64,000 bases of DNA, from positions 2,724,891 through 2,788,890 of the forward strand of contig JBFWNU010000001.1 in the NCBI GenBank assembly GCA_050250895.1, read 5' to 3'. The number at the start of each line of letters is the position of its first letter. Position 1 is the first letter of the stretch. Under the pieces are notes generated by a model, which saw only the letters and a program-made list of their open reading frames with translations, ran no database searches and was not told where the DNA came from. Source of the stretch: Vulcanimicrobiota bacterium (GTDB taxonomy: Bacteria; Vulcanimicrobiota; Xenobia; Xenobiales; JADMJV01). Shown one piece after another: positions 2,047 to 35,520 of the stretch. The position numbers and the translations under genes are program-made.

Positions 2047-3743
2047 TAGTGCACTACCCAGACCACTCTGGCCTTCTCGGAGAATTGCAGAAACTGGTTG
2101 GGGTCGAGGCTGAATTTGCCTTTCTGCAGATGCTGGTCTTTCGTCTTCTGGTAGAGGTCGTTGAGGTTGGCCAGGTTGTCGCGGAACTTCTGGCGGTAGG
2201 CCGGCAGAGCTACCTGGGTCAGATGGCCCATCAGCTCTTCCGAGCTGACCTCGCCAGGGATGGCCAGGTTGGCGTTGACCGCCTCGATGGCCTTGTCCAG
2301 GTCGGTCGTCTCGAAGTAGCCGCTGGGGTAAGCATCCAGGTAGATCGGTTTCACTTTGATGCGGAATATGACGGGGATGTTGTCGTCGCTGGCCAGTTCG
2401 GGGTCGATGACATCCGCCTCAGAGTCGTAGAACAGGCTAAGGTCGACATCGGTGGGAGTAAAAATGCCAAAGGCGTCGGCCGGCGCCCCGGGAAAGATGG
2501 GCTGGGCGGTGGCGAAAGGGAAGTCCCACTCCAGGCTCAGCACCTCGGGCACTTCCACCACGTTGGTGTCCGAGATCGAGGTGGTGGTCGGGGTGGCGGC
2601 GTTGTTGACCAGGCTGCCCACCAGCGTGATGTCGCTGATAGCGATGTTGCCCCCGCCATAGACCACACCGTTGAAATGCGAGCTTTGCTGATCGTCGCCG
2701 CTGATGGTCACGTTGCCGGCCGCCACCAGCGCCTGGACGTTGTCGGTGGACAGGGCTGATCCGCCGTTGAGCGTGACGTCTCCAGTGCAAAAGATGGCCC
2801 CCTTGCCGCTGACTCCCCCGTTGACCACCAGATTCCCGTCCACGTAGAGATACGCACCATCGAGTTCCAGCCCGCCGTTGCTGATGGTCAGATCGCCGCT
2901 GCGGCGGACCGGTCCCTCCAGAGTGAGAGGGCTCGAACTGACCGAGGTCGTGAGTTCGTACAGACCGGTCCAACCAGCCGGGTCGTAGTCGGCGACATCG
3001 AGTTCGGGTAGGTTCTCGGGGTCGGCATTCTCCAGCACCGCTCCTCCCACCGACGTCTGGGCGCCCAGGCTGATGCTACCTCCCGACTGGGCGTCGCCGG
3101 TGATGTTGGTGGGAGACAGCGGTGACGAAGCCAGCCACAGAGGGCCTACCGCGTTGGCTACCAGGTGGCCGGGTAGCAACTGGTCGGGTGGCACCGCCGC
3201 CAGTCCCCCGGCCAGAGTTTGCAGGTCGGGCACCGAGGCCACGAAAAGCCCTCCGCTGGACGTCAGGGTGCCGGAGGTGGCGATAGCGTATCTGTAGTGA
3301 GGGATGCGCAGGATGGTTTCTAGCGCATAGGTCACTCCGTTCGACTCACCCACCGCCTTGAGCTGGGCCGAGAAGGGGGCCAGCGAGCGCCCGCTGGCCG
3401 GGGCCGCCGTGTCTTGCTCGAGGTTGTTGTGCGACACCTCCACCCCCCACAGATCGGCCCGATCGGGTTCGAAGGTGAGGCGACCGGTGGTGTTGGCGAC
3501 GACGACTTCGAGAGAGCGCTGGTCGGCATCGCCAGCCAGGCCGAAGTGCTGGTCGTGACTGAGCCGGTCGATGGCCAGAGCGGTCACCGACTCGGCCGCG
3601 TTGCGGGCCTGTTCGAGGTTGGCCTGGCGGGTGGCCAGGCGCAGGTGAAAGCTGCCCACTCCGGCCATGGTCAGCGCTACGACCAGCAGCACCGCCCCCA
3701 CCAGGACGGTGGTGGCCAGGGCTGCCCCCCTGGGCCCGGTCAC
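2046..3743 (-). CDS. PilX-like large minor pilin (paralog 2)
   Basis: 565 aa; RG|AALATTVLV N-terminus; shares long blocks with paralog 1 (e.g. DYDPAGWTGL, LTISNGGLELDGAYLYVDG). Confidence 0.7.
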   Translation of the reverse strand: MTGPRGAALATTVLVGAVLLVVALTMAGVGSFHLRLATRQANLEQARNAAESVTALAIDRLSHDQHFGLAGDADQRSLEVVVANTTGRLTFEPDRADLWGVEVSHNNLEQDTAAPASGRSLAPFSAQLKAVGESNGVTYALETILRIPHYRYAIATSGTLTSSGGLFVASVPDLQTLAGGLAAVPPDQLLPGHLVANAVGPLWLASSPLSPTNITGDAQSGGSISLGAQTSVGGAVLENADPENLPELDVADYDPAGWTGLYELTTSVSSSPLTLEGPVRRSGDLTISNGGLELDGAYLYVDGNLVVNGGVSGKGAIFCTGDVTLNGGSALSTDNVQALVAAGNVTISGDDQQSSHFNGVVYGGGNIAISDITLVGSLVNNAATPTTTSISDTNVVEVPEVLSLEWDFPFATAQPIFPGAPADAFGIFTPTDVDLSLFYDSEADVIDPELASDDNIPVIFRIKVKPIYLDAYPSGYFETTDLDKAIEAVNANLAIPGEVSSEELMGHLTQVALPAYRQKFRDNLANLNDLYQKTKDQHLQKGKFSLDPNQFLQFSEKARVVWVVH

Positions 3744-4999
3744 AGGCTCTCCAATACCTGGTAGATGGGGGCGAAGGTGGCCAGGATGATCACCCCCACG
3801 GCCACGCCCAGGACCATCATCAGAACCGGTTCTACCAATGCCGTCAGGGCCACCAGAAAGTGTTCGACCTCCATCTCGGAATACTCTGCCACGGTGGCCA
3901 GCAGGGTCGACAGGCGGCCGCTCTCTTCACCCGCGGCGGTGAGGTGAACCACCTCGGGCGAGAAGAAGCCGGTGCGGGCCAGCGCCTCCGACAGGGAGGC
4001 TCCATCGCGCAAGGCTTCGCGGCTGGCCAGCAGCGCTTGCCGGGCCAACGGACTCGGGGTCGATACCGACACCAGTTGCATGACCCGGTCGATGGTGAGC
4101 CCCGAGGCGACCAGCAGGCCCAGCATGCGGCAGCATCGGGCCGCCTCGAGGCGACGCAGCAAGTCGCCCAGTTTGGGCACATGCAACAACCGACCCTCGA
4201 TCCACTCGCGGCCGTCGGGATGGCGCCAGGCCCGGGTGGCACAAAACAAGACCAGCCCCGGGACCAAGACCAGCCCGACCATGGTCAGGCGATTGGTCAT
4301 CACGCCGGTGATCAGGCCCAGCAGTCCGGTGCTGCTCTCGGCCACCGTCGGCAGCGAGGCCAGCACCCGGCCCATGATGTTGCCCAGGATTCCCAGGGCG
4401 GCCAACATGCACAGCAGCACCACGGCCGGATAGGTCAACTGGCTCACCAGTTTGCGATAGAGGGCCACTTCCTTTTCTTCTAAATCCGCCAGGTCGTTGA
4501 GCAACCGCCCGAGCTTGCCACTCTCTTCGCCCACCGCCACCGTCCCCACCTGAACCGGCGTAAACAGTCCCGTGCCGCGCATGGCCGTGCTCAGCCGGGT
4601 GCCCTGGCCCAGAGCCGTGACGGCTTTCTCGAGTCGGCGGGCCGCCACCGGACGATAAACCTGGTCGCACAGGGTCTCGAGGCAACGATGCAGATGGATG
4701 CCGGCCTCGAACATCGAGGCCAGTTGGCGCAGGAAGACGGCTCGCTCGGTCAGGCTCCAGCCCGGCCTGGTCAGGGGCTCTTGAGGCTCGGGGGGCTTGG
4801 CCTCGGACACCGGCGGGGGGGGCGGCGGCTTGACCCTGGGCTTGGGAGGCGCCACTTTGGCCACCTCTTGCTTGAGTTCCATCAGCATCAGACCCTGGGC
4901 TTGAATGGCTTTGACCGCTTCGGCCTTGGAGGGAGCCTGCAGGCTGCCCTTGCGGATCCCGCCCCCCTTCTCGGCCGCGACATAGCTGAAGGTCGGCAT
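3740..4999 (-). CDS. pilC: Type II secretion/type IV pilus platform protein (GspF/PilC family)
   Basis: MPTFSYVA..G start, FLRQLASMFEAG, two GEESG.L motifs, LTYP and EP motifs before TM helices. Confidence 0.9.
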   Translation of the reverse strand: MPTFSYVAAEKGGGIRKGSLQAPSKAEAVKAIQAQGLMLMELKQEVAKVAPPKPRVKPPPPPPVSEAKPPEPQEPLTRPGWSLTERAVFLRQLASMFEAGIHLHRCLETLCDQVYRPVAARRLEKAVTALGQGTRLSTAMRGTGLFTPVQVGTVAVGEESGKLGRLLNDLADLEEKEVALYRKLVSQLTYPAVVLLCMLAALGILGNIMGRVLASLPTVAESSTGLLGLITGVMTNRLTMVGLVLVPGLVLFCATRAWRHPDGREWIEGRLLHVPKLGDLLRRLEAARCCRMLGLLVASGLTIDRVMQLVSVSTPSPLARQALLASREALRDGASLSEALARTGFFSPEVVHLTAAGEESGRLSTLLATVAEYSEMEVEHFLVALTALVEPVLMMVLGVAVGVIILATFAPIYQVLESL

Positions 5000-24850: not shown

Positions 24851-24929
24851 CTGACCCCACCTCCAGAAAACTTTGGGGCACGGTTCTCGCTCTCGAGGAG
24901 TTAACCCTTTGCAGGTTCACGAGGGGCCG

Positions 24930-26648
24930 ATGAAAAAGGGCGGGCTAGTGAAAAGCCTCAGACAGCTAGTAATGGTCGGGTTGGCTTTGTTGATCTGGTC
25001 GGTCGCTCCCGGTTGGGCTCAGCTTTTGCCCGAACCTGACGCCGAGACTCCGACGCCCGTGTCGGTCGAGGCGACCGAATCGCCCGAGGCGGGCAAGACC
25101 AGCCCGCGCGACGCGGTGGCCGACTTCCTCAACATCATGCGTGAGGCAGGTCCTTTGCGGCCGGACCTATACCTGGCTGCTCGCCAGTATCTCGATCTGT
25201 CGGGTGTGCCCAGTGTGGTGCGCGACGAGAAAAGCGTTACCCTGGCCAACGACCTTTACAACGTCTTGATGGCCGCCGATGTGGACCTGGCCAGCCTCCC
25301 CGACACCGACCCCGGTCTCGACCGGGTCCGCGTCTATCGCCAGCCCACCGGTGACGAGATCTACCTGGTGCGGGCCGACGACGGCTCGTGGCAGTTCTCG
25401 GCCGACAGCTTGGCCGGCCTCAACCGCATGTATGGGGTGCTGGCCACCAAAGGCAAACTGGCCAGCCTCGAGGTGCCGGCCTGGCTTGACTTTCGCTTTC
25501 TCGGTCTGGCCGGGCTGCAGTGGTTGCTGCTGGTCTGCATTCCCTTTCTGTCCTGGTTTTTTGGTCGGGTCTGCGTACTGGTGGTTCGTCGGCTGGTGAA
25601 AAAGCGCCTCGAGAGCGAAAGCTTCGGTATCTCGCCCGATGAGCAGAAGAAGGTCCTGCGGCCGCTCGGCTGGTTGATCGGCAGTCTGATGGCCTGGGTC
25701 GGCTTCACGGCTTTGATGCTGCCCGAGGCGATGCTGGTGTTGCTGGCCATCCTCTGCAAACTGGTAGCGACCTCAGCTGCGGTCCTTTCTGCCTACCGCT
25801 TTTGCGACGTGCTGGCCATCTTCTTGCATCACGTGGCTAGCCGGACCGAATCGACCTTCGACGACATGCTGGTGCCGCTGGTGCGCCGCTCCCTCAAGGT
25901 CGTCATCACCATCATCGGCCTGCTCTTCATCGCTCAGAACCTGGATCTCGAGGTGTGGAGCCTGTTCGCCGGATTCTCGGTCGTCGGAGCCATGGTGGCC
26001 CTGGCCGGCCAGGACATGGTCAAGAATTTCTTCGGTTCGCTGACGGTCTTGATGGACCGACCCTTCTCGGTCGGAGATTGGGTTGTAGTGGAAGGCGTGG
26101 AAGGAGTGGTAGAGGATGTGGGCTTTCGCTCGACCCGGATCCGCACGTTCTATGACTCGGTCATCTCGTTGCCGAACTCGCGACTGATCACGGCTCACGT
26201 GGACAATTACGGAGCCCGCACCTATCGGCGCTACACTACCAAGCTCAATCTTCTCTATTCCACTGCGCCCGACCGTCTCGAGGCTTTCTGCGAGGGCATT
26301 CGCGAGTTGGTCCGGATTCATCCCCATACGCGCAAAGATTCCTTTCAGGTGTGGGTCAACGACATGTCCGAATACTCCCTTCAGGTGCTGCTCTATGTCT
26401 TTTGGAAGTGCCCTGATTGGGAGAGCGAACTACGAGAGCGCCATCGCTTCCTGGTGGATGTCCATCGGCTGGCCCGCAGTCTCGAACTCGAGTTTGCTTA
26501 TCCCACCAACACCGTGCACCTCGACCGAGAATCGCCCGAATTGGGCAGCCCCGCGCTGACCCACGAGTCCGGAGAGCTCGCGCGCGAACAGGGCCGAGAG
26601 CTGGTCGGAACCTTGACCGCCGCCAGTCTGCCCGAGACCACTGCTTGA
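24930..26648 (+). CDS. MscS-family mechanosensitive channel with N-terminal periplasmic domain
   Basis: ALAGQDMVKNFFGS, DRPFSVGDWV, GVVEDVGFRSTRIRT, PNS, FAYPT; start uncertain (24930 or slightly downstream). Confidence 0.9.
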   Translation: MKKGGLVKSLRQLVMVGLALLIWSVAPGWAQLLPEPDAETPTPVSVEATESPEAGKTSPRDAVADFLNIMREAGPLRPDLYLAARQYLDLSGVPSVVRDEKSVTLANDLYNVLMAADVDLASLPDTDPGLDRVRVYRQPTGDEIYLVRADDGSWQFSADSLAGLNRMYGVLATKGKLASLEVPAWLDFRFLGLAGLQWLLLVCIPFLSWFFGRVCVLVVRRLVKKRLESESFGISPDEQKKVLRPLGWLIGSLMAWVGFTALMLPEAMLVLLAILCKLVATSAAVLSAYRFCDVLAIFLHHVASRTESTFDDMLVPLVRRSLKVVITIIGLLFIAQNLDLEVWSLFAGFSVVGAMVALAGQDMVKNFFGSLTVLMDRPFSVGDWVVVEGVEGVVEDVGFRSTRIRTFYDSVISLPNSRLITAHVDNYGARTYRRYTTKLNLLYSTAPDRLEAFCEGIRELVRIHPHTRKDSFQVWVNDMSEYSLQVLLYVFWKCPDWESELRERHRFLVDVHRLARSLELEFAYPTNTVHLDRESPELGSPALTHESGELAREQGRELVGTLTAASLPETTA

Positions 26649-27472
26649 GAATCCTGGCCCTGCTGCTGCTACTGAGTTGTCAGGCCCTGGCCCAGGTGGG
26701 CAGCCTGGTATCGCTATCGGGCACCGAGGTCAAACTCACCTCGCTGCATTATCGCTTCGACCTGACCGAGCCGAAGGCTCGCCTCAGCCTCGAGGCCACT
26801 CTGGTCAATACCACGGATCGAGCGCTTGACGCCCACTACTTGCTGTTGGCTACCCAGGCGCGTCCTCCGGTCGAACTCGACGGCCGACCCTTACCCGTCG
26901 AGTCGACCTCGCGGGGCGAGTTTTACGGGCATGCCTTTCTGGTGCCCCTGTCACCCCACGAAGAGGCCCGACTGACCTCTCGCGTGACCGTGGTCGGCGA
27001 GCCGGCCTTTGATGCCGGACGGCGTGGCTACCGCTACCATCTGGTGGTGCCGGGAGATGGGACCACCGAGTTCGAGTTCGAGCTGCCCGAGTCTCTTTGG
27101 CTCGGCTCGGCCCTATCGCTCGAGTCCACCGAACCCGGCCGTTATCGGGCTCGGGCCCTGACCGGTCAGGTGGCTTTCACCGTCGGCCCCAAGGCCGACC
27201 TCGGATTCGCCCTGGCGTTGGGCGGGCCCATGGTGGTTTTCTTGCTGGCCAGTCTTATCGCTCTTCGGTGTCGACCGGCCGTGGGCCTGACTCTGGCCAT
27301 GCTGCTCGCCGGCGCGACCTATCAGGCCCTCAGTAAATCGGTCTGGCTGATCTGGTCGACCGAGCCGGCCGTCGAGGACCTGCTGAGGTGGTCGCTGGTG
27401 CTGGCGGTCACGGGGGCCGCCGTGGTCACCACCGCTGCCGGAGGAGTGCGTGAGCCTGCTGAGCGAGAGTGA
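26645..27472 (+). CDS. Hypothetical protein with signal peptide and C-terminal TM helices
   Basis: TTGA overlap with MscS stop; (M)RILALLLLLSCQALA; three hydrophobic C-terminal segments. Confidence 0.6.
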   Translation: MRILALLLLLSCQALAQVGSLVSLSGTEVKLTSLHYRFDLTEPKARLSLEATLVNTTDRALDAHYLLLATQARPPVELDGRPLPVESTSRGEFYGHAFLVPLSPHEEARLTSRVTVVGEPAFDAGRRGYRYHLVVPGDGTTEFEFELPESLWLGSALSLESTEPGRYRARALTGQVAFTVGPKADLGFALALGGPMVVFLLASLIALRCRPAVGLTLAMLLAGATYQALSKSVWLIWSTEPAVEDLLRWSLVLAVTGAAVVTTAAGGVREPAERE

Positions 27473-28148
27473 ACTCGAGCGCCGGGACGTGGTGGCCAAT
27501 TGCTCGATGAATCGGGAACGCGGTCTGGCCAGCTATGTCCGAGAACTCCGCTTCGACCCGCTCGGACAACTGGCCGCCGGGGATTGCTGGCTTGACCTTG
27601 GCTGCGGTCAGGGACGGGCTTTGCGCGAGGCAGCCGAGCGTCGCCCGGATCTCCGACTCTTCGGAGTCGACCTGGTATTGCCCGAGCCTTCGCCTGACGT
27701 TGCGTTCGTGGCGGCGGCGGCCCGCCATTATCGACCCCGCCAACGCTTCGGCCTGATCACGATGGTCCACTCACTCCACTATGTGGGCGACAAACTGGGT
27801 TTGCTCGAGCGGGCGTCCCAATGGCTCGAGGAGCGGGGCCGACTGGTGGCCCACCTCGACCTGGCCAACCTGCGCTGGCCTGACGGTCGCCGGGCCGGTC
27901 CCTGGCTGGTCGGCCAGTTGCGTCAGGGTGGTTGGCTCTATCAGGCGCGCCTTCGCCTGCTCTCGCGGGTGGGACCGGCCCCGTTCGGCCCGGAGGTTGA
28001 ATTCCTTGGGGCTGACCCCTCCGCGGGCCCGAACTTCACCGGCCAGGCTGCCGTCCACTCGGTCTACCGTCGCGCACGAACTTTCGACGAAAAACATGTA
28101 ACAAAAGAAATTTCTGGCCGACGTCAAGACCCGAATGGGCAACTTTAG
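27450..28148 (+). CDS. Class I SAM-dependent methyltransferase
   Basis: WLDLGCGQG, FGVDL, LHYVGD. Confidence 0.8.
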   Translation: MSLLSESELERRDVVANCSMNRERGLASYVRELRFDPLGQLAAGDCWLDLGCGQGRALREAAERRPDLRLFGVDLVLPEPSPDVAFVAAAARHYRPRQRFGLITMVHSLHYVGDKLGLLERASQWLEERGRLVAHLDLANLRWPDGRRAGPWLVGQLRQGGWLYQARLRLLSRVGPAPFGPEVEFLGADPSAGPNFTGQAAVHSVYRRARTFDEKHVTKEISGRRQDPNGQL

Positions 28149-28196
28149 CTCGATCTGGACGGCCTTGGATGCGATTTTGGGAACAGGTTTTCCCGG

Positions 28197-28224
28197 TTGA
28201 CATCGTCTTCTGGATGGATATAAT
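28197..28224 (+). promoter_or_regulatory. Consensus sigma70 promoter driving the non-coding unit
   Basis: TTGACA (28197-28202)-N16-TATAAT (28219-28224). Confidence 0.85.
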
Positions 28225-28230
28225 CAAAAT

Positions 28231-29308
28231 CGTTCCGACCACGGAGCCGCCCCGAATCAGCGTGAGTTCGGTGGGGTCTTACACCCCCAGACGGAATGTC
28301 TAAAGGGTAAGCGTTGGGCGAAGACGACATCGCACCCCCGGCGCCCCGGCCGGTCTCCAGGGCAAGGCTCGACTCGGGCCCTAGAACCCTCGCGAGGTTC
28401 GTCCGGCTCCCGAGAATCGAGAGGTCTGGTGCTGGTAGGTATGGCGGCCAGACAGCGGAACACTCAATTGCCGCGGCGCTCCACGATGCCGAAAGAGAGT
28501 GACTTGAGAACCGGTGGTCCGGTTTACGGTGGCAAACCCACCGGCGGCGCTGCTCGAATGCCGTGACAGAGGCGTCTGTCGAACGCGAGCAGGGTAGCTC
28601 TCCACCATAGAGAGCCTGAAGCCTCGATAAGGATTTCGGGGCGAGGCCCGAGACCCAGGCCGGAACCGTGAGGGTAAAGGCTGCCGCTAGTCGGCAGTGC
28701 CGGAGCAGGTCGAAAACGGGAGTCTGGTGCAGGTGAGGTGGCGGCCAGACACGGAGTCGCTCAGGCCGTAAAGAGCGAGGGTTGCGCTCAAACCATAGAA
28801 GCGCCCAGAGCCGACTGGTTAAAACGGGAGTCGTCGCAACGACTTAAGCCGACGGGTCGTGGAGTGCCCGAGGGTTGGAAATCTCGCGCCTGACGTGAGA
28901 ACGTCGAATAGCGAGCGCGGAACTGCTCGAGTGCCGTGGGGGGTGACCGCCAGAAAAGCGAGCAGGGGTAGCATGCATACCTGAGATATGCGCAGCGCTT
29001 CGTCTGAAGACATTCGAAGCGAGGCCCGACGCTCTTGCCGGAACCGTGAGGGGAAAGGCCGACTGGATTCGTCCAGTTCGGTGCCGGTCAAGGCGGACCA
29101 CGGGAGCCTGGTGCAGGAGAGGCGGCGGCCAGGCAGCGGAGCTATCGCTTGCCGCGACGACCACTAATCGTCGAAAGAGATAGACAGCAGATGTCTCGAC
29201 TGCCTAACAATGAGACGACCCTCCGCTTCGGCGAAGGGACCCCGACGCCTGAGTGGTGGCGGTCGGGAACCGAGAGGCGCTCCCTGGCAGGGCGCCTCTT
29301 TCCTTTTT
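28231..29308 (+). ncRNA. Candidate large (~1.07 kb) structured non-coding RNA with internally repeated modules; family not recognised
   Basis: No credible ORF; bounded by promoter and terminator; dense hairpins; three copies of a stem+pseudoknot module and two copies of a multibranch module with compensatory base changes. Confidence 0.8.
29272..29308 (+). terminator. Intrinsic terminator
   Basis: GAGAGGCGCTC-CCTGGCA-GGGCGCCTCTT followed by TCCTTTTT. Confidence 0.8.
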
Positions 29309-29410
29309 CCGGGGGGCGCGTGGGAGTGGTGGAAATCGCCAGGTGCAGTAGGCGTGGATGCTTAGCTGCGGGCGCTTTGGAACTTTGGGGTCGGGGCTGA
29401 CGAGACAGAG

Positions 29411-29686
29411 ATGGGACTAGCGTTGCGGTTTGCCGGACGGCCGCTGCTTTTTCGGAAGCTGGTGGGCTTGGACGGAGGATGCACGCTGGACGGGATCGCG
29501 GATTTGCAGAACGCGATTCGCGAGGAGTTGGGGTTCGGAGAGCCTGTCGTGGTCCCGGACCGTGGGGCTACCTTCTTTGCCACCGTGGGGATGCCGTTTA
29601 CGCTACATCCGGAGGCCCAGTTCCACGAGGTTCAGCTGCGAAAGCTGAAGGATATTCGGTCAAAGTTCCCGCTGGTTGAGCGGTGA
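29411..29686 (+). CDS. Small hypothetical protein
   Basis: 91-aa ORF with ATG filling the gap before the convergent mqnD; no recognisable motif. Confidence 0.35.
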   Translation: MGLALRFAGRPLLFRKLVGLDGGCTLDGIADLQNAIREELGFGEPVVVPDRGATFFATVGMPFTLHPEAQFHEVQLRKLKDIRSKFPLVER

Positions 29687-29757
29687 CGCAATCTGTGCCG
29701 ACTTGGCTTGGTCGGACCCTTCCACCTCCGCGTTAAAACTCCAGCAAGCACCCCCGG

Positions 29758-30591
29758 TCAGGCGGTGACGAAGTCGACCTCGATCGAACGGGGGATGATG
29801 CCGGCCGAGTGGCCTCGCGAGAGCAGTTCACGCACGGCGGCGCGGCCGGCCTGACCGAAGTCGAGAGTCGTGTCGTTGACGTACATCTCGACGAAGCGGT
29901 CGCAGGTGTCCTTGTCGAGCCCTCGGCCCCACTGCAGAGCGTAGTCCAGGGCCTCGTCGCGGTGGTCGAGGCCGTAGCGGATGGAGCGGTCGAGGATGTC
30001 GGCGACCTGGGCGATGCGTTCGGGGCCCAGCGAGCGGCGCACGATGGTCACTCCCAGGGGCAGAGGCAGCCCGGTCTGCTCTTGCCACCATTGGCCCAGG
30101 TCGACCAGTAGCTCGAGGCCTTCGGCGGCATAGGTCAACTGGCCCTCGTGGATGACCAAACCGGCACTGGCCTCACCCGAGCGGACCGTCTCGAGGATTT
30201 GGTCGAAGGGAACCACTTTGTAGGGGAAGTCTCCGGCGTAGAGGCGGGCTACCAGGAAGGCCGTGGTCAGCTCGCCGGGCACGGCTATCGGGCCGGCAAA
30301 GGCCTCTTCCGCCTCGACCCCGGGGCGGGTCACGAAGATCGGGCCGTAACCCTGGCCCAGGCTGGCCCCCGCCGCCAGCAAGGCATAGTCGTCGGCCAGG
30401 TGGGCATAGGCATGCAGAGAGACGGCCGTGACGTCGAGCTTTTGCTCGAAGGCCCACTCGTTGAGGGTCTGGATGTCCTCCATGACGTGCTCGAATTCGA
30501 ACTCGCCCATGTCGATGCGCCGCTGCGCGGTGGCGCAGAACATGAAGGCGTCGTCAGGGTCGGGGCTGTGACCTACGCGAATCAGGGTCAC
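29758..30591 (-). CDS. mqnD: 1,4-dihydroxy-6-naphthoate synthase (futalosine menaquinone pathway)
   Basis: GHSPDPDDAFMF, DIQTLN, G.GYGP, PGELTTA, IHEGQLTY, LPLPLG, MYVN. Confidence 0.92.
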   Translation of the reverse strand: MTLIRVGHSPDPDDAFMFCATAQRRIDMGEFEFEHVMEDIQTLNEWAFEQKLDVTAVSLHAYAHLADDYALLAAGASLGQGYGPIFVTRPGVEAEEAFAGPIAVPGELTTAFLVARLYAGDFPYKVVPFDQILETVRSGEASAGLVIHEGQLTYAAEGLELLVDLGQWWQEQTGLPLPLGVTIVRRSLGPERIAQVADILDRSIRYGLDHRDEALDYALQWGRGLDKDTCDRFVEMYVNDTTLDFGQAGRAAVRELLSRGHSAGIIPRSIEVDFVTA

Positions 30592-32675: not shown

Positions 32676-32825
32676 GAGAGTGCCCTTTCTCCCCCTGCAG
32701 TTATAGACTTTTCCAGGGTTCGCTGGGTTTCCCTTCGTCTTGAAGTCGAGCCTTCCTACTGTTGTCAGCCACGCAAAAAGACGGCCCGAGGACCGCCTTT
32801 GCTAGTTCTGACGACTGTGATCGTT

Positions 32826-33077
32826 CTAGAGGTGGCGCGCGATGGCGGCCTGGGTCAAGGCCTCGCCGACCCGCAGTTCGGGACTCACGGCACGCAGATT
32901 CCGGGTGGCCTGGCCGAGTTCGAGGCTGCTCACTTTGGGCAAGAAGAGGTTGCCGGGGTCGCTCTCGCGGCGGGCGACCAGCAAGGCGAAGTTGAGAGGG
33001 TAACGTTTTTCTTCGACCAGTTTCTGCGTCTTCTGAGCGATCTTGTCGGCATACTTCAGATAGTCGGTTCTCGTCAT
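32826..33077 (-). CDS. Small hypothetical protein
   Basis: GGGAGG upstream of ATG 33077; 83 aa MTRTDYLKYADKIAQ... Confidence 0.55.
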   Translation of the reverse strand: MTRTDYLKYADKIAQKTQKLVEEKRYPLNFALLVARRESDPGNLFLPKVSSLELGQATRNLRAVSPELRVGEALTQAAIARHL

Positions 33078-33240
33078 CTTTTTGTGGCCTCCCGCTGGTG
33101 ATGTTGAAATCATAATCTTTGGTCGTTTCCGGAGGGTTGCGAGGGCTTTCCAGATATTGCCAGATTGTTAAAATGTTTGATTTTTCATGTTCACGATTCG
33201 CATCCTGAGAACCGGTCGAAAGTTTGTTATACTCTTTATT

Positions 33241-35520
33241 ATGAAACAGCGTAGAGGAATCGCCCTGATCGTGGTGCTGCTGTTGGCCAGTGTCATGGCC
33301 GCACTGGCCGGGGCCTTCGTGACCCTGAACCGAGCCAACTTCGCCATGGCAGGGGATGTCGGCGAAGAGAGCCTGGCCCGGGCCACCGGAGACTCGGCCG
33401 TCAACTTCGCTTGCAGCCGCCTGACAGCTGACCCCGATTGGGGCGTGCCCGCCGGCTCCAGCGGTTGGACCCAGACGTTCGACTCCACCGAGCTGAAGGT
33501 CTGGGAGCGAGAGCAGGGCGGCATCGTCTCGGCCGTGGGCGTGATGAACGGAGGCAACAGCTGTTTTCAAATTCACTTCCAGGCTCCCAGCGCCGATGTG
33601 GTCGACTTTGCCGCGGTCGACCTCAACTCGATTCGCAGCAACCCGGCCACTCCGGGCAGTTGGACGCCGGCCGCCACCCTGACCCCGGCCCGCTGGGCCT
33701 CGACCAACAACTTCGATGCCCCGGCTGGCACCGTGCTGTCGCAGCCAAAAGTCGGTCTGCGACCCGTGCCGGCCCGCTCGGCCAACGTTCAGGTGCTGGT
33801 TTTCGCGGGGGACACCCAGCGTAAATTCGACACCACCCTGCATCGTCCCAGCGTGATCAGTTACGGGGTTCTGAGTCAGGGCGAGCTGGGCGTCGGCCTC
33901 GGCGGAGACCCTACCACTGGCGACACCAGCGGGGATTGGTCGGTCCTCTCGGCCGACCCCTATGTCAATGAGGTGGCGGGACGCAACGGAGTGCATGCTC
34001 CTGATGTGCTCAACGGCAGCAATGGTCAAACCACCAGCTTCACTGATGGCGGCAAGCTCAAGAGTGGCACCAACATCAATCTTTTTACCAATCTGTCGGT
34101 CGCTCCCGGCAGCCCGCCCGTGGTCACCACCTCGGGAGCCGGCGCGGTGGTCGGTGACGGCGTCAACGATGTCGACGAGAAAAACCAGCTGCGAGCCGCC
34201 ACGCAGGGTCAATACCTGGACCATCAGCAGATTCCCAACGTGGTGGCGACTTACAGCGGCGGCCTGGGTTTATCGGCTGTCACCGTCAGCCTTGACGCTG
34301 GCACCTATCGGTTCATCGCCGATAACACGGTCGAACAATATGATGGCTTCGGCACGTTAGTGGCCACCCACACGGGCACGATCGGGTCGACCGGTATCGA
34401 GCTGGTCAATTCCGAAATGCGCTTTCCCGAGAACCGTGAGGTGGTCGTGACCGGAAACCTCAACGTCGAGCGCGCAGCGACCTACGACAAAGTTCCCTAC
34501 GTAAGCCTGGGTCAGAACGCCAGCGGAGTGGGAGCGGCCTCGGTGCTCAAGGTCAATGGCGATGTCAATCTGAGTGCCGCTATCGCCGGCCAGGGGGCCC
34601 TCGTTTCTCAGGGCAACGTGGCTCTTCAGGGCAAGAGTGCCGTGGCTGCCCCGGCCGACCTGGGAGTGGCCGTGTTCGCGGCCCGCGATGTCACTTTCGC
34701 GCCGGTGGACAGCGCGGCCAGCTCCGCCGCCCCGGCTCAGGTGCTACCGGGTGATTGGAGTTCCCTGAATGATGCTTTCCTGGCTAATTCGGGCATCTCC
34801 AACCTGTGGGACCATCCCACTAAGGGTCTCAACGGCTGGGACACGCTCTCGAGCAGCGAGCGCCAGAAACACATCCGCCTGGGCGGGGGCGGCAACAAGT
34901 ACATTCCCGGCGGCCTGGCCAACGTTGGCGGAGTCGGTTCGTCGGCCTCAGCGGGCCTGACCCAGCGCGCCCAGGACCTGGGGTTGATCGCGGGTGCTCA
35001 GGACTTTACCGCCATCCCCGAATTGAGCGCTTTCACGCCCAACACCGTTCAGGACTATGTCGCGGCCTCGCTCTTTCTCGAGTCGCTGGCGACCGGTTCA
35101 CCGGACCTGACTCTGCTGGTGCCGGGTCCGAGCCTCGACCCCGTCGTGCAGGGCAAGGTCGACGCGCGTATCGAAGCGATGCTCGACAAGCTCTACGAGC
35201 AGAAATCAGGTTCGTTCGAGAATTTCGTCGGGTCTTCCACGGCCAATCCCGTGCCTCTCGCTGGCTACGAGGTCGTCAACCCTCGCGACGCCGAGTTTCG
35301 TGGGGTCGTCTACTCGGGGGGCAATATCGTAGCCAATATGGGAGGCTATCGGTTTAGCGTGGATGGAGCCGTGGCCGCCCAGGGCGATGTCTTGATGGAC
35401 GGAGTCAAGAAGCTGACCAGTCGCTACAATCCCACCTACATCGAGCGTTTCACGGACGCGTTCGATGTCTCGAGCACCGAGTCGGCCCAGGTCAAAGTTG
35501 TCTATCAGTCGGAATATTGA
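33241..35520 (+). CDS. Large PilX-like minor pilin
   Basis: MKQRRG|IALIVVLLLASV; Gly/Ser/Thr-rich beta-repeat segments (GALVSQGNV, GVVYSGGNI, GAVAAQGDV). Confidence 0.75.
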   Translation: MKQRRGIALIVVLLLASVMAALAGAFVTLNRANFAMAGDVGEESLARATGDSAVNFACSRLTADPDWGVPAGSSGWTQTFDSTELKVWEREQGGIVSAVGVMNGGNSCFQIHFQAPSADVVDFAAVDLNSIRSNPATPGSWTPAATLTPARWASTNNFDAPAGTVLSQPKVGLRPVPARSANVQVLVFAGDTQRKFDTTLHRPSVISYGVLSQGELGVGLGGDPTTGDTSGDWSVLSADPYVNEVAGRNGVHAPDVLNGSNGQTTSFTDGGKLKSGTNINLFTNLSVAPGSPPVVTTSGAGAVVGDGVNDVDEKNQLRAATQGQYLDHQQIPNVVATYSGGLGLSAVTVSLDAGTYRFIADNTVEQYDGFGTLVATHTGTIGSTGIELVNSEMRFPENREVVVTGNLNVERAATYDKVPYVSLGQNASGVGAASVLKVNGDVNLSAAIAGQGALVSQGNVALQGKSAVAAPADLGVAVFAARDVTFAPVDSAASSAAPAQVLPGDWSSLNDAFLANSGISNLWDHPTKGLNGWDTLSSSERQKHIRLGGGGNKYIPGGLANVGGVGSSASAGLTQRAQDLGLIAGAQDFTAIPELSAFTPNTVQDYVAASLFLESLATGSPDLTLLVPGPSLDPVVQGKVDARIEAMLDKLYEQKSGSFENFVGSSTANPVPLAGYEVVNPRDAEFRGVVYSGGNIVANMGGYRFSVDGAVAAQGDVLMDGVKKLTSRYNPTYIERFTDAFDVSSTESAQVKVVYQSEY

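Follow-up and report, generated by a model that had tools for sequence, protein, structure and literature searches.

What kind of molecule is encoded by a kilobase of "intergenic" DNA in which the same elaborate RNA fold seems to be written out more than once? The locus lies in a 64,000 nt stretch of a Vulcanimicrobiota bacterium genome (assembly GCA_050250895.1, contig JBFWNU010000001.1, positions 2,724,891 to 2,788,890 of the forward strand), hereafter the window, to which positions refer unless another locus is named. A preliminary description had picked out two copies of a multibranch module there, called B, alternating with a pseudoknot module, and had suggested that conserved junctions between variable stems might form a repeated core, ligand pocket or catalytic site. 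We find that the locus is a free-standing noncoding RNA gene of ~1,075 nt (~28231-29306, + strand). That it specifies a structured noncoding RNA of several units, belonging to a family that Rfam 15 does not contain, is, in our judgement, nearly certain. The best explanation of the whole, to which we give a probability of about one half, is a unit-built free-standing RNA that acts as a multivalent platform or decoy.

Our first question was whether the two copies are truly related. All motifs by which they had been recognised (copy 1, 28550-28720; copy 2, 28923-29104) are in place: CTGCTCG, CGAGCAG and the closing CGGG stand at 28550-28556, 28586-28592 and 28717-28720 in copy 1 and at 28923-28929, 28959-28965 and 29101-29104 in copy 2. 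By repeat search, blastn self-comparison and covariance model the copies are genuinely alike, far above chance. The repeat families that join them are D1 (28635-28711 with 29013-29089, 77 nt, 71%), D2 (28697-28751 with 29081-29135, 55 nt, 80%), D5 (28544-28565 with 28917-28938, 22 nt, 86%) and D11 (13 nt, 92%), and blastn pairs 28635-28756 with 29013-29141 at 73.6% identity over 129 columns (E 7.6e-14). A covariance model of 180 positions and 30 base pairs, R1, was built only from copy 2 with its A hairpin and 16 orthologs or paralogs. R1 matches copy 1 and its A hairpin (28590-28750) at 85.9 bits (E 2.5e-23). It also matches the three regions that had been set down as a 5' domain (28308-28453; 36.7 bits, E 3.2e-9), a linker (28776-28955; 16.5 bits, E 0.002) and a 3' domain (29175-29268; 14.4 bits, E 0.008). 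The RNA is therefore a string of units, and the order given earlier, 5' domain-A-B-A-linker-B-A-3' domain, has to be redrawn: B is not a separate module alternating with another, since A and B are the two halves of one repeat unit, and in the window RNA three full units, all carrying an A hairpin, alternate with three reduced ones.

A unit is ~170-250 nt long. From its 5' end it comprises an H-type pseudoknot, the junction GGGGUA, hairpin P2 with the conserved loop CAGACCNRAG, hairpin P3, helix P5/P6 closing a three-way junction (P7, the GNRA hairpin P8 and the variable hairpin P9), the junction GGGAG, and the "A" hairpin with its purine-rich loop. P5 is the CCCG/CGGG pairing of the preliminary description, and P8 sits inside GGAACCGYGAGG. 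Several details of that description required revision. The CTGCTCG/CGAGCAG stem, thought to enclose an internal AATGCCGTG, is stem 2 of the H-type pseudoknot: GCCG at 28560-28563 pairs with the upstream CGGC at 28545-28548 in copy 1, and CCGT at 28934-28937 with GCGG at 28917-28920 in copy 2. For the first hairpin of copy 2 the proposed register GCATA/TATGC pairs in 65% of alignment cells with 0 compensatory pairs, as against 95% and 2 compensatory pairs for GCATG/TATGC (28971-28975 with 28987-28991). Nor are the intervening hairpins wholly replaced between copies, as the loop of the first hairpin retains ACC..AG in both copies and in most family units.

Support for this fold came from three alignments. 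In A1, a plain MAFFT alignment of 17 copy-2 orthologs, 96.7% of cells are paired, compared with 23-51% when the pairing is slid, and 10 of 30 pairs show compensatory change. In the two alignments made to the model, A2 (79 units from genome G000 and relatives) and A3 (150 units from metagenome contigs), the paired fractions are 92.1% (slid, 28-42%) and 91.0% (slid, 31-48%), with compensatory change at 30/30 pairs in both. The observed covariation score was reached by 0/500 shuffles in each alignment. The A hairpin, helix 6 of alignment A2, is paired in 95.9% of cells and compensatory at 6/6 pairs. Orthologs of copy 1 (n=13) pair in 322/353 cells (91.2%), with P6 weak there. The H-type pseudoknot head was present in 59/79 units, compared with a mean of 6.3 and a maximum of 11 over 50 shuffles; because the script selects whichever fit is best, the comparison with shuffles is what counts, and its misses include units whose long insertions exceed the 90-nt look-up window. 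Both pseudoknot stems, in crossing order, stay paired across units through compensatory change, S1 as GCGG/CCGC, GGGC/GUCC and GGGG/CCCC, and S2, which is very varied, as CUGCU/AGCAG, CUGCCAG/CUGGCAG, CUCAUUC/GAAUGAG and CUAUCCU/AGGAUAG, among others. P8, as read from the alignments without a scored control, carries a GNRA tetraloop (GUGA, GCGA, GCAA or GUAA) on a covarying stem (CC/GG, CCC/GGG, CCCG/CGGG, CCCA/UGGG and GCC/GGC). A mutual-information scan of alignment A3 returned column pairs that, at the top, are almost all modelled helices; one additional pair stands out, in which CUG of the P3 loop is matched by CAG just 5' of P3 (A:U 58, G:C 26). A candidate tertiary pair within the unit joins position 4 with position 19 in the P2 loop (G:C 63, A:U 5, A:C 7, G:U 1).

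Compensatory change in stems also bears on whether there is an RNA gene here at all. ORFs of 62-106 codons overlap the region, the genome is GC-rich and there are several copies per genome, as might be expected of a protein-coding region, a mobile-element relic or a repeat acting at the DNA level. However, none of the 5/5 overlapping ORFs has a Pfam family, indels do not come in threes, stem substitutions are compensatory, no transposase or integrase lies nearby, the unit-head pattern has 0 matches in viral contigs, and a transcript is indicated by the promoter, the terminator and an RNA-library cover confined to the gene. We give such readings next to no credence.

Several further motifs were considered for the unit and set aside. 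By eye, neither a pairing of the P2 loop ACC with the A-stem GGU nor a kissing of A loops with the loops of the pseudoknot hairpins followed a consistent pattern. An HDV-like nested double pseudoknot was rejected for the unit head, where the P3 hairpin and P1.1 of that fold are absent, and a kink-turn does not fit the P5/P6 internal loop (A opposite GACCA).

The central claim of the preliminary description, that conserved and mostly unpaired purine-rich junctions (GGGGUAGC, RGGCC, GGAACCGYGAGG..AAAG and GGGAG) separate stems that vary by compensatory change, is upheld. The 63 units not used for the model retain cAGgGGUaGc.ugCAgACC..Ag, GgCc, gg..ccg..agg and gGagcc.Gg.g..gg, and these letters are the junctions and loops singled out earlier, with the addition of the P2 loop. 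The module thus recurs, with junctions kept in those 63 units and helices covarying in all three alignments, and the junctions proved conserved across homologs, the point at which that description had offered itself for refutation. Its proposal that each unit might hold a ligand-binding aptamer or a catalytic core draws on the same pattern, conserved junction nucleotides between variable covarying stems in a pseudoknot-rich fold of a type typical of aptamers and ribozymes. We consider this quite improbable: the gene lacks both an expression platform and a downstream gene under its regulation, it matches none of the known riboswitch or ribozyme models, and a sensor or catalyst needs no 2 to 12 copies per chain. 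The variable unit number, the lack of a ribozyme or riboswitch match and the free-standing gene fit repeated binding or an architectural role better than catalysis.

The units of one RNA are not equal. In the window's subfamily their character depends on their position: copy 2 keeps 70-89% identity between paralogs and genera, and the B1 units compared are ~38-68% alike. Copy 1 and copy 2 are 67% identical in the window RNA, 69% in paralog P2 and 45-57% in most other members compared, and the duplication therefore predates the paralogs and the genera. Unit 2 (copy 2 with A hairpin 3) is by far the most constrained and may be the principal functional unit. From P5 to the A hairpin, the 3' half of unit 1 (28635-28756 vs. 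29013-29141) was found to be unusually unit-2-like in the window RNA and in paralog P2, where R1 scores 85.9 and 63.1 bits, compared with ~24-26 bits in paralogs P3, P4 and P6. This likeness points to gene conversion among the units of a single gene or to more rapid drift in the other lineage.

The coordinates of promoter, terminator and structural elements are collected in Table 1. We infer that the RNA starts near 28231; the promoter and the terminator, called at 29272-29300 with a T-rich tail, delimit ~1,075 nt. Because it has its own promoter and terminator and its neighbours are unrelated and often convergent, the RNA is not a leader; a riboswitch or other cis-regulatory leader was rejected on these grounds, the downstream gene being convergent at 4/6 paralogs.

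Table 1. Features of the window RNA and its gene. Window position = L001 position + 26724. S1 and S2, pseudoknot stems; R1, covariance model of the unit.
Feature	Position	Strand	Details
Promoter	28197..28224	+	sigma-70; TTGACA, 16 nt spacer, TATAAT; 12/12 consensus matches
5' leader and head of unit 0	28231..28307	+	conserved CACGGAGYCGCCCCG motif, pseudoknot-like head; alignments of 6 and 17 full-length RNAs
Unit 0	28308..28453	+	degenerate third "B-like" core and A hairpin 1; R1 36.7 bits (L001 1584-1729)
A hairpin 1, stem	28424-28429 with 28448-28453	+	GTCTGG with CCAGAC
Pseudoknot K1, after A hairpin 1	28455..28501	+	S1 GCGG 28455-28458/CCGC 28471-28474; S2 CACTC 28461-28465/GAGTG 28497-28501; hairpin 28475-28490
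Pseudoknot K2, head of copy 1	28545..28592	+	S1 CGGC/GCCG; S2 CTGCTCG/CGAGCAG; hairpin 28566-28579; scored by head script (L001:1866-2026)
Copy 1 multibranch core	28593..28720	+	GGGTA junction; R1 match 28590-28750
Copy 1 P2	28597-28602/28610-28615	+	GCTCTC/GAGAGC
Copy 1 P3	28621-28627/28636-28642	+
Copy 1 P5	28647-28650/28717-28720	+	CCCG/CGGG
Copy 1 P7	28660-28663/28700-28703	+	CCGG/CCGG
Copy 1 P8	28666-28673	+	GNRA hairpin CC-GTGA-GG
Copy 1 P9	28681-28686/28692-28697	+
A hairpin 2	28722..28750	+	GTCTGG 28722-28727/CCAGAC 28745-28750; purine-rich loop TGCAGGTGAGGTGGCGG
Pseudoknot K3, after A hairpin 2, without inserted hairpin	28751..28778	+	S1 ACGG 28751-28754/CCGT 28766-28769; S2 TCGCTC 28757-28762/GAGCGA 28773-28778
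"Linker", a reduced unit	28776..28955	+	P2-like hairpin GGGTTGCGCT..AGCGC with loop CAAACCATAGA; then AAAACGGGAG and a hairpin; 3' end overlaps next unit head; R1 match L001 2052-2231
Pseudoknot K4, head of copy 2	28917..28965	+	S1 GCGG/CCGT; S2 CTGCTCG/CGAGCAG; hairpin 28938-28951; scored by head script (L001:2239-2410)
Copy 2 multibranch core	28963..29104	+	GGGGTA junction; alignment A1, R1
Copy 2 P2	28971-28975/28987-28991	+	GCATG/TATGC
Copy 2 P3	28996-29002/29015-29021	+	CGCTTCG/CGAAGCG; loop almost invariant
Copy 2 P5	29025-29028/29101-29104	+	CCCG/CGGG
Copy 2 P6	29030-29032/29091-29093	+	CGC/GCG
Copy 2 P7	29037-29041/29082-29086	+	GCCGG/CCGGT
Copy 2 P8		+	CC-GTGA-GG
Copy 2 P9		+	CTGGA-TTCG-TCCAG
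A hairpin 3	29106..29134	+	GCCTGG 29106-29111/CCAGGC 29129-29134; loop TGCAGGAGAGGCGGCGG; most conserved A copy
Pseudoknot K5, after A hairpin 3	29136..29183	+	S1 GCGG 29136-29139/CCGC 29152-29155; S2 CTATC 29142-29146/GATAG 29179-29183; hairpin 29157-29171
3' partial unit	29175..29268	+	A-like hairpin 4, CCCGAC 29241-29246/GTCGGG 29262-29267; R1 match L001 2451-2544
Intrinsic terminator	29272..29310	+	11-pair stem, T-rich tail

Pseudoknots K1, K3 and K5 were read from the window sequence; K1 has the same topology as the scored unit heads, and the head orthologous to K3 in paralog P2 was scored by the pseudoknot script (L012:1910-2015). The stretch of K5 is matched to K1 by repeats D3, D4 and D8, and repeat D12, AAAACGGGAGTC, occurs at 28713 and 28821. 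S1 of K2 varies in orthologs (GCGG/CCGC, GGGG/CCCC, CCGG/CCGG), and S2 of K4 becomes CTGTCA/TGACAG in paralog P2. Some relatives (L008, L002, L015 and L004) carry an extra hairpin inserted in the loop of A hairpin 3, and in paralog P2 the 3' partial unit corresponds to a clear A module. On either side of the RNA are ordinary genes with no relation to it: a mechanosensitive channel, a methyltransferase and a menaquinone-synthesis gene. ORFs without a Pfam family near the RNA gene lie at 26417-27472 (+, 351 codons), 29411-29686 (+, 91 codons) and 32701-34224 (-, 507 codons). The 351-codon ORF overlaps the 3' end of the 591-codon channel gene (24873-26648) by ~230 nt, and the start of one or the other has probably been called too early.

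Is the RNA made? The stretch is partly present in 21 public runs of 9 studies, 9 of the runs being recorded as RNA. Contigs of four metatranscriptome runs (3 studies) were compared with 27500-30000 and cover only 28251-29288, at word depths of 2572-3907 (X5, X7), 358 (X17) and ~3 (X20), with zero depth over 27500-28171 and 29348-30000. The RNA appears to be highly expressed in activated sludge and wastewater communities. The longest contig piece measures 928 nt (28361-29288), pieces of 465 and 590 nt cross other unit borders, and the contigs end at 29278-29288; the first ~20-50 nt and last ~20 nt of the predicted RNA are without a contig, and the contigs are uninformative on its true ends. Two contigs of 836 and 1,124 nt (depth 2,490 and 10,451) match only the stretch of A hairpin 3, 29103-29134. 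They are probably other family members, seemingly even more abundant in these samples.

Contig continuity bears on the idea that the long transcript is a precursor, cut between units into structured RNAs of ~200 nt in the manner of tRNA arrays or clustered small RNAs. A tandem head-to-tail layout under a single promoter and terminator would suit such a precursor, as would the conserved junction between an A hairpin and the next pseudoknot. On the other hand, RNA-library contigs of 928, 465 and 590 nt bridge unit borders, although contigs cannot exclude processing, and the units of the window-type RNA are unequal and specific to their position, its 5' leader being unique. We regard a precursor as improbable.

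How widely is this design distributed? Genome G000 (9.5 Mb, 17 contigs) contains six full-length collinear paralogs of 1.1-1.2 kb, every one of them (6/6) with a TTGAC box, a common 5' motif and a terminator. No neighbour gene is conserved at the six, where neighbours differ each time; by the ORF list the next downstream gene is convergent at four, no transposase or integrase lies near the paralogs, and tRNA or phage genes are not adjacent to them. Paralogs P4 and P5 share one orientation on contig C2, where 5 kb separates them, and in the relative G013 two members of the family sit on opposite strands, back to back (L005 2721-3071 and 1210-2679). Among 151 sampled genomes of the phylum, unit matches were found in 21 (family f1 14/15, f2 5/5, f5 1/1; 1-12 matches per positive genome) and were absent from f3 (0/19, small genomes of the same order) and from all other families in that sample; blastn alone found matches in 11/41 relatives.

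Relatives differ in the number of units. At locus L071, from genus g2 of the same family, six units follow one another head to tail between a promoter and a terminator (~1.42 kb), and at L054, from family f2, two units are enclosed in this way (~0.51 kb); both promoters resemble that of the window RNA. In metagenomes we found 272 unit matches in 69 loci, and the unit-head pattern in at least 134 stretches of metagenome contigs and in 0 viral contigs. Along metagenome contigs the units recur every ~215-255 nt; L094 and L124 contain six each, L123 has seven and L084 eight. Contig L090 (2,859 nt, incomplete at both ends) holds 12 unit heads at a period of ~255 nt; the body of its unit is larger than elsewhere, and R1 yields only a single match to it at E up to 1e-4. 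Some family members, of the divergent subfamily represented by L090, are thus longer than 2.9 kb, and the family ranges from 2 to at least 12 tandem units per RNA and from ~0.5 to at least 2.9 kb.

A scan of genome contigs with an A-loop pattern returned 10 loci. Only L030 was a clear nhmmer match, with the same scores as L019; L033, with weak nhmmer matches (best E 0.042), is a real member on reading, and the other eight, with no nhmmer match, look like chance. Close relatives are apparently missing from the collection that was scanned. L033 was rejected as a member from another lineage, as it lies in G151, whose matches share contigs and coordinates with those of G006. The member at L033 1031-2375 is a divergent paralog of lower GC content, ~1.33 kb long, which has a promoter-like box and a terminator to itself and contains at least six P2-type heads but only two clear A hairpins. 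It is a divergent paralog in the same genome family, and one genome therefore carries several subtypes.

The number and spacing of units raise the possibility that the RNA is architectural, its units packing through the P8 GNRA loop, the P2 loop and the A loop into a closed or helical pseudo-symmetric body. By analogy, such a body would be the covalent counterpart of RNA-only assemblies of many identical chains. Every unit has a GNRA hairpin and conserved hairpin loops without a secondary-structure partner, and in L071, L094 and L090 the units follow head to tail with hardly any spacer. Large ornate bacterial RNAs are reported to form RNA-only complexes (10.1101/2024.12.08.627333). However, no covariation between units was found, the one candidate tertiary pair (4 with 19) is intra-unit, a range from 2 to at least 12 units fits a fixed closed shape poorly, and there is no homology to the ROOL or GOLLD models. 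We think an architectural body unlikely.

We then asked whether the RNA belongs to a known family or system. No model of Rfam 15 (4227 models) matches at its gathering score anywhere in the window. At E up to 10, 28050-29450 gave four weak hits to eukaryotic families, all far under cut-off, and at E up to 1 eight related loci gave four weak hits, none near cut-off. We take these models to include GOLLD, ROOL, OLE, HEARO, raiA, RNase P, tmRNA, SRP, 6S, riboswitches and self-cleaving ribozymes. Identity with RNase P RNA was rejected, the canonical RNase P RNA being elsewhere (G000:C1:1125467-1125845, 305 bits, over cut-off). No RNA of this description was found in the openly available literature that was searched, where PMC10434106 mentions routine Rfam annotation.

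The closest comparisons are with GOLLD, ROOL and OLE, the large ornate orphan noncoding RNAs of bacteria. Like them, the window RNA is free-standing and very large, with many conserved junctions, pseudoknots, GNRA loops, strong covariation and orphan status. Unlike them, its family repeats one unit in tandem (2 to at least 12 copies), is represented by many paralogs in a genome, has 0 viral-contig matches, does not lie beside tRNA or phage genes, and has no match in Rfam 15. Tandem riboswitch aptamers such as those for glycine (PMC9481103) likewise place several copies of a complex fold in one transcript; these are 5' leaders with an expression platform and 2 or 3 copies, whereas the present family has its own terminator and up to 12 copies. 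In eukaryotes, the human long noncoding RNA NORAD consists of repeated units that bind PUMILIO. The window family would resemble it, as proposed here, in providing a multivalent platform through a long RNA whose repeated units measure a few hundred nt; NORAD is eukaryotic and unrelated in sequence, its units are not known as compact pseudoknotted folds, and the likeness is one of analogy only.

CsrB, CsrC and RsmX/Y/Z are abundant free-standing RNAs that sequester protein through repeated elements of variable copy number, by a stoichiometric logic. The window family shares with them its abundance, its free-standing gene, its repeated elements, a copy number that varies between relatives and, as proposed, that logic. 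Their repeats are simple GGA hairpins of ~20 nt, in contrast to the multi-helix pseudoknotted folds of 170-250 nt seen here. Could the RNA nevertheless be a sponge of this type, titrating CsrA through GGA motifs in the A loops? GGAG or AGGA occurs in many A loops (e.g. CAGGAGAGG and UGGAGUGGAGG), and the RNA is repetitive and abundant. But CsrA does not co-occur with the RNA: a CsrA domain (PF02599) was found in 6/41 relatives (f1 4/15 together with G000, f2 1/5), while the RNA is present in 14/15 of f1 and 5/5 of f2. In addition, several A loops lack GGA (GGTGAGG, GGTAGG, including those of A hairpins 1 and 2 in the window), and the units greatly exceed CsrA sites in size and complexity. On distribution, a CsrA sponge is highly improbable. 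The G000 match to the CsrA domain (C1:555315-555470, L202) lies in a frame of 411 codons and that of G009 in one of 355, compared with the usual 60-70 residues of CsrA; these may be fused or mis-framed CsrA.

What, then, might the RNA do? In the mechanism that we propose, each unit would fold on its own into the same compact tertiary module, so that the chain would display one conserved surface several times. The RNA would act stoichiometrically, as a multivalent platform or decoy holding several copies of one partner, a protein being likelier than a small ligand. A multivalent role is favoured because the unit number varies around a constant core, paralogs are many, promoters match the consensus and depth in RNA libraries is high. 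A number of observations weigh against this mechanism or temper the evidence for it. The partner is hypothetical, and the six paralogs share no neighbouring gene. That the units are unequally conserved argues against a plain array of equivalent binding sites, and the A loops differ between units (GGAGAGG, GGTGAGG, GGTAGG), so that a shared A-loop binding site is not evident. The pair counts of alignments A2 and A3 are biased towards the model to which they were aligned. Folding of single sequences is unexceptional (z -1.64 for copy 1 and -0.84 for copy 2), a measure that is uninformative for this GC-rich RNA, and minimum-energy folds of single copies lack the closing helices. Finally, the expression data are assembled contigs from runs picked for containing the stretch; they are strandless, have no exact ends and come without a comparison to DNA runs. 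On balance we prefer a multivalent binding or scaffold mechanism only tentatively, at somewhat less than even odds.

To our knowledge, bacterial RNAs of at least 1 kb with dense tertiary structure are very few, and ribosomal RNA, group II introns, GOLLD, ROOL and OLE have each opened a line of structural or functional research. Compared with Rfam 15 and the literature searched, the design described here is new: a complex folded unit in tandem, with a copy number that varies between relatives. It is also tractable. The secondary structure is backed by covariation, natural variants number in the hundreds, single units of ~170-220 nt are suited to probing and cryo-EM, and the RNA is apparently highly expressed in accessible communities (activated sludge, wastewater). 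At the level of annotation, ~1.1 kb of "intergenic" DNA at six places in the genome, and at many in relatives, can now be labelled. Two questions become open to test, whether long repeat-built RNAs serve bacteria as multivalent platforms, and in what way RNA domains evolve by duplication, reduction and concerted change. The window RNA could be, with odds that we place just under even, the founding example of a class not described before, in which a single pseudoknotted domain of ~200 nt is covalently multimerised (2 to at least 12 copies, giving 0.5 to at least 2.9 kb). Its members would be encoded in numerous paralogs within each genome of a group of soil and sludge bacteria with large genomes, would be deeply covered in wastewater and sludge metatranscriptomes, and would work as multivalent RNA machines. 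If so, the class would be a bacterial counterpart of the repeat-built long noncoding RNAs of eukaryotes, or a single-chain version of RNA-only cages.

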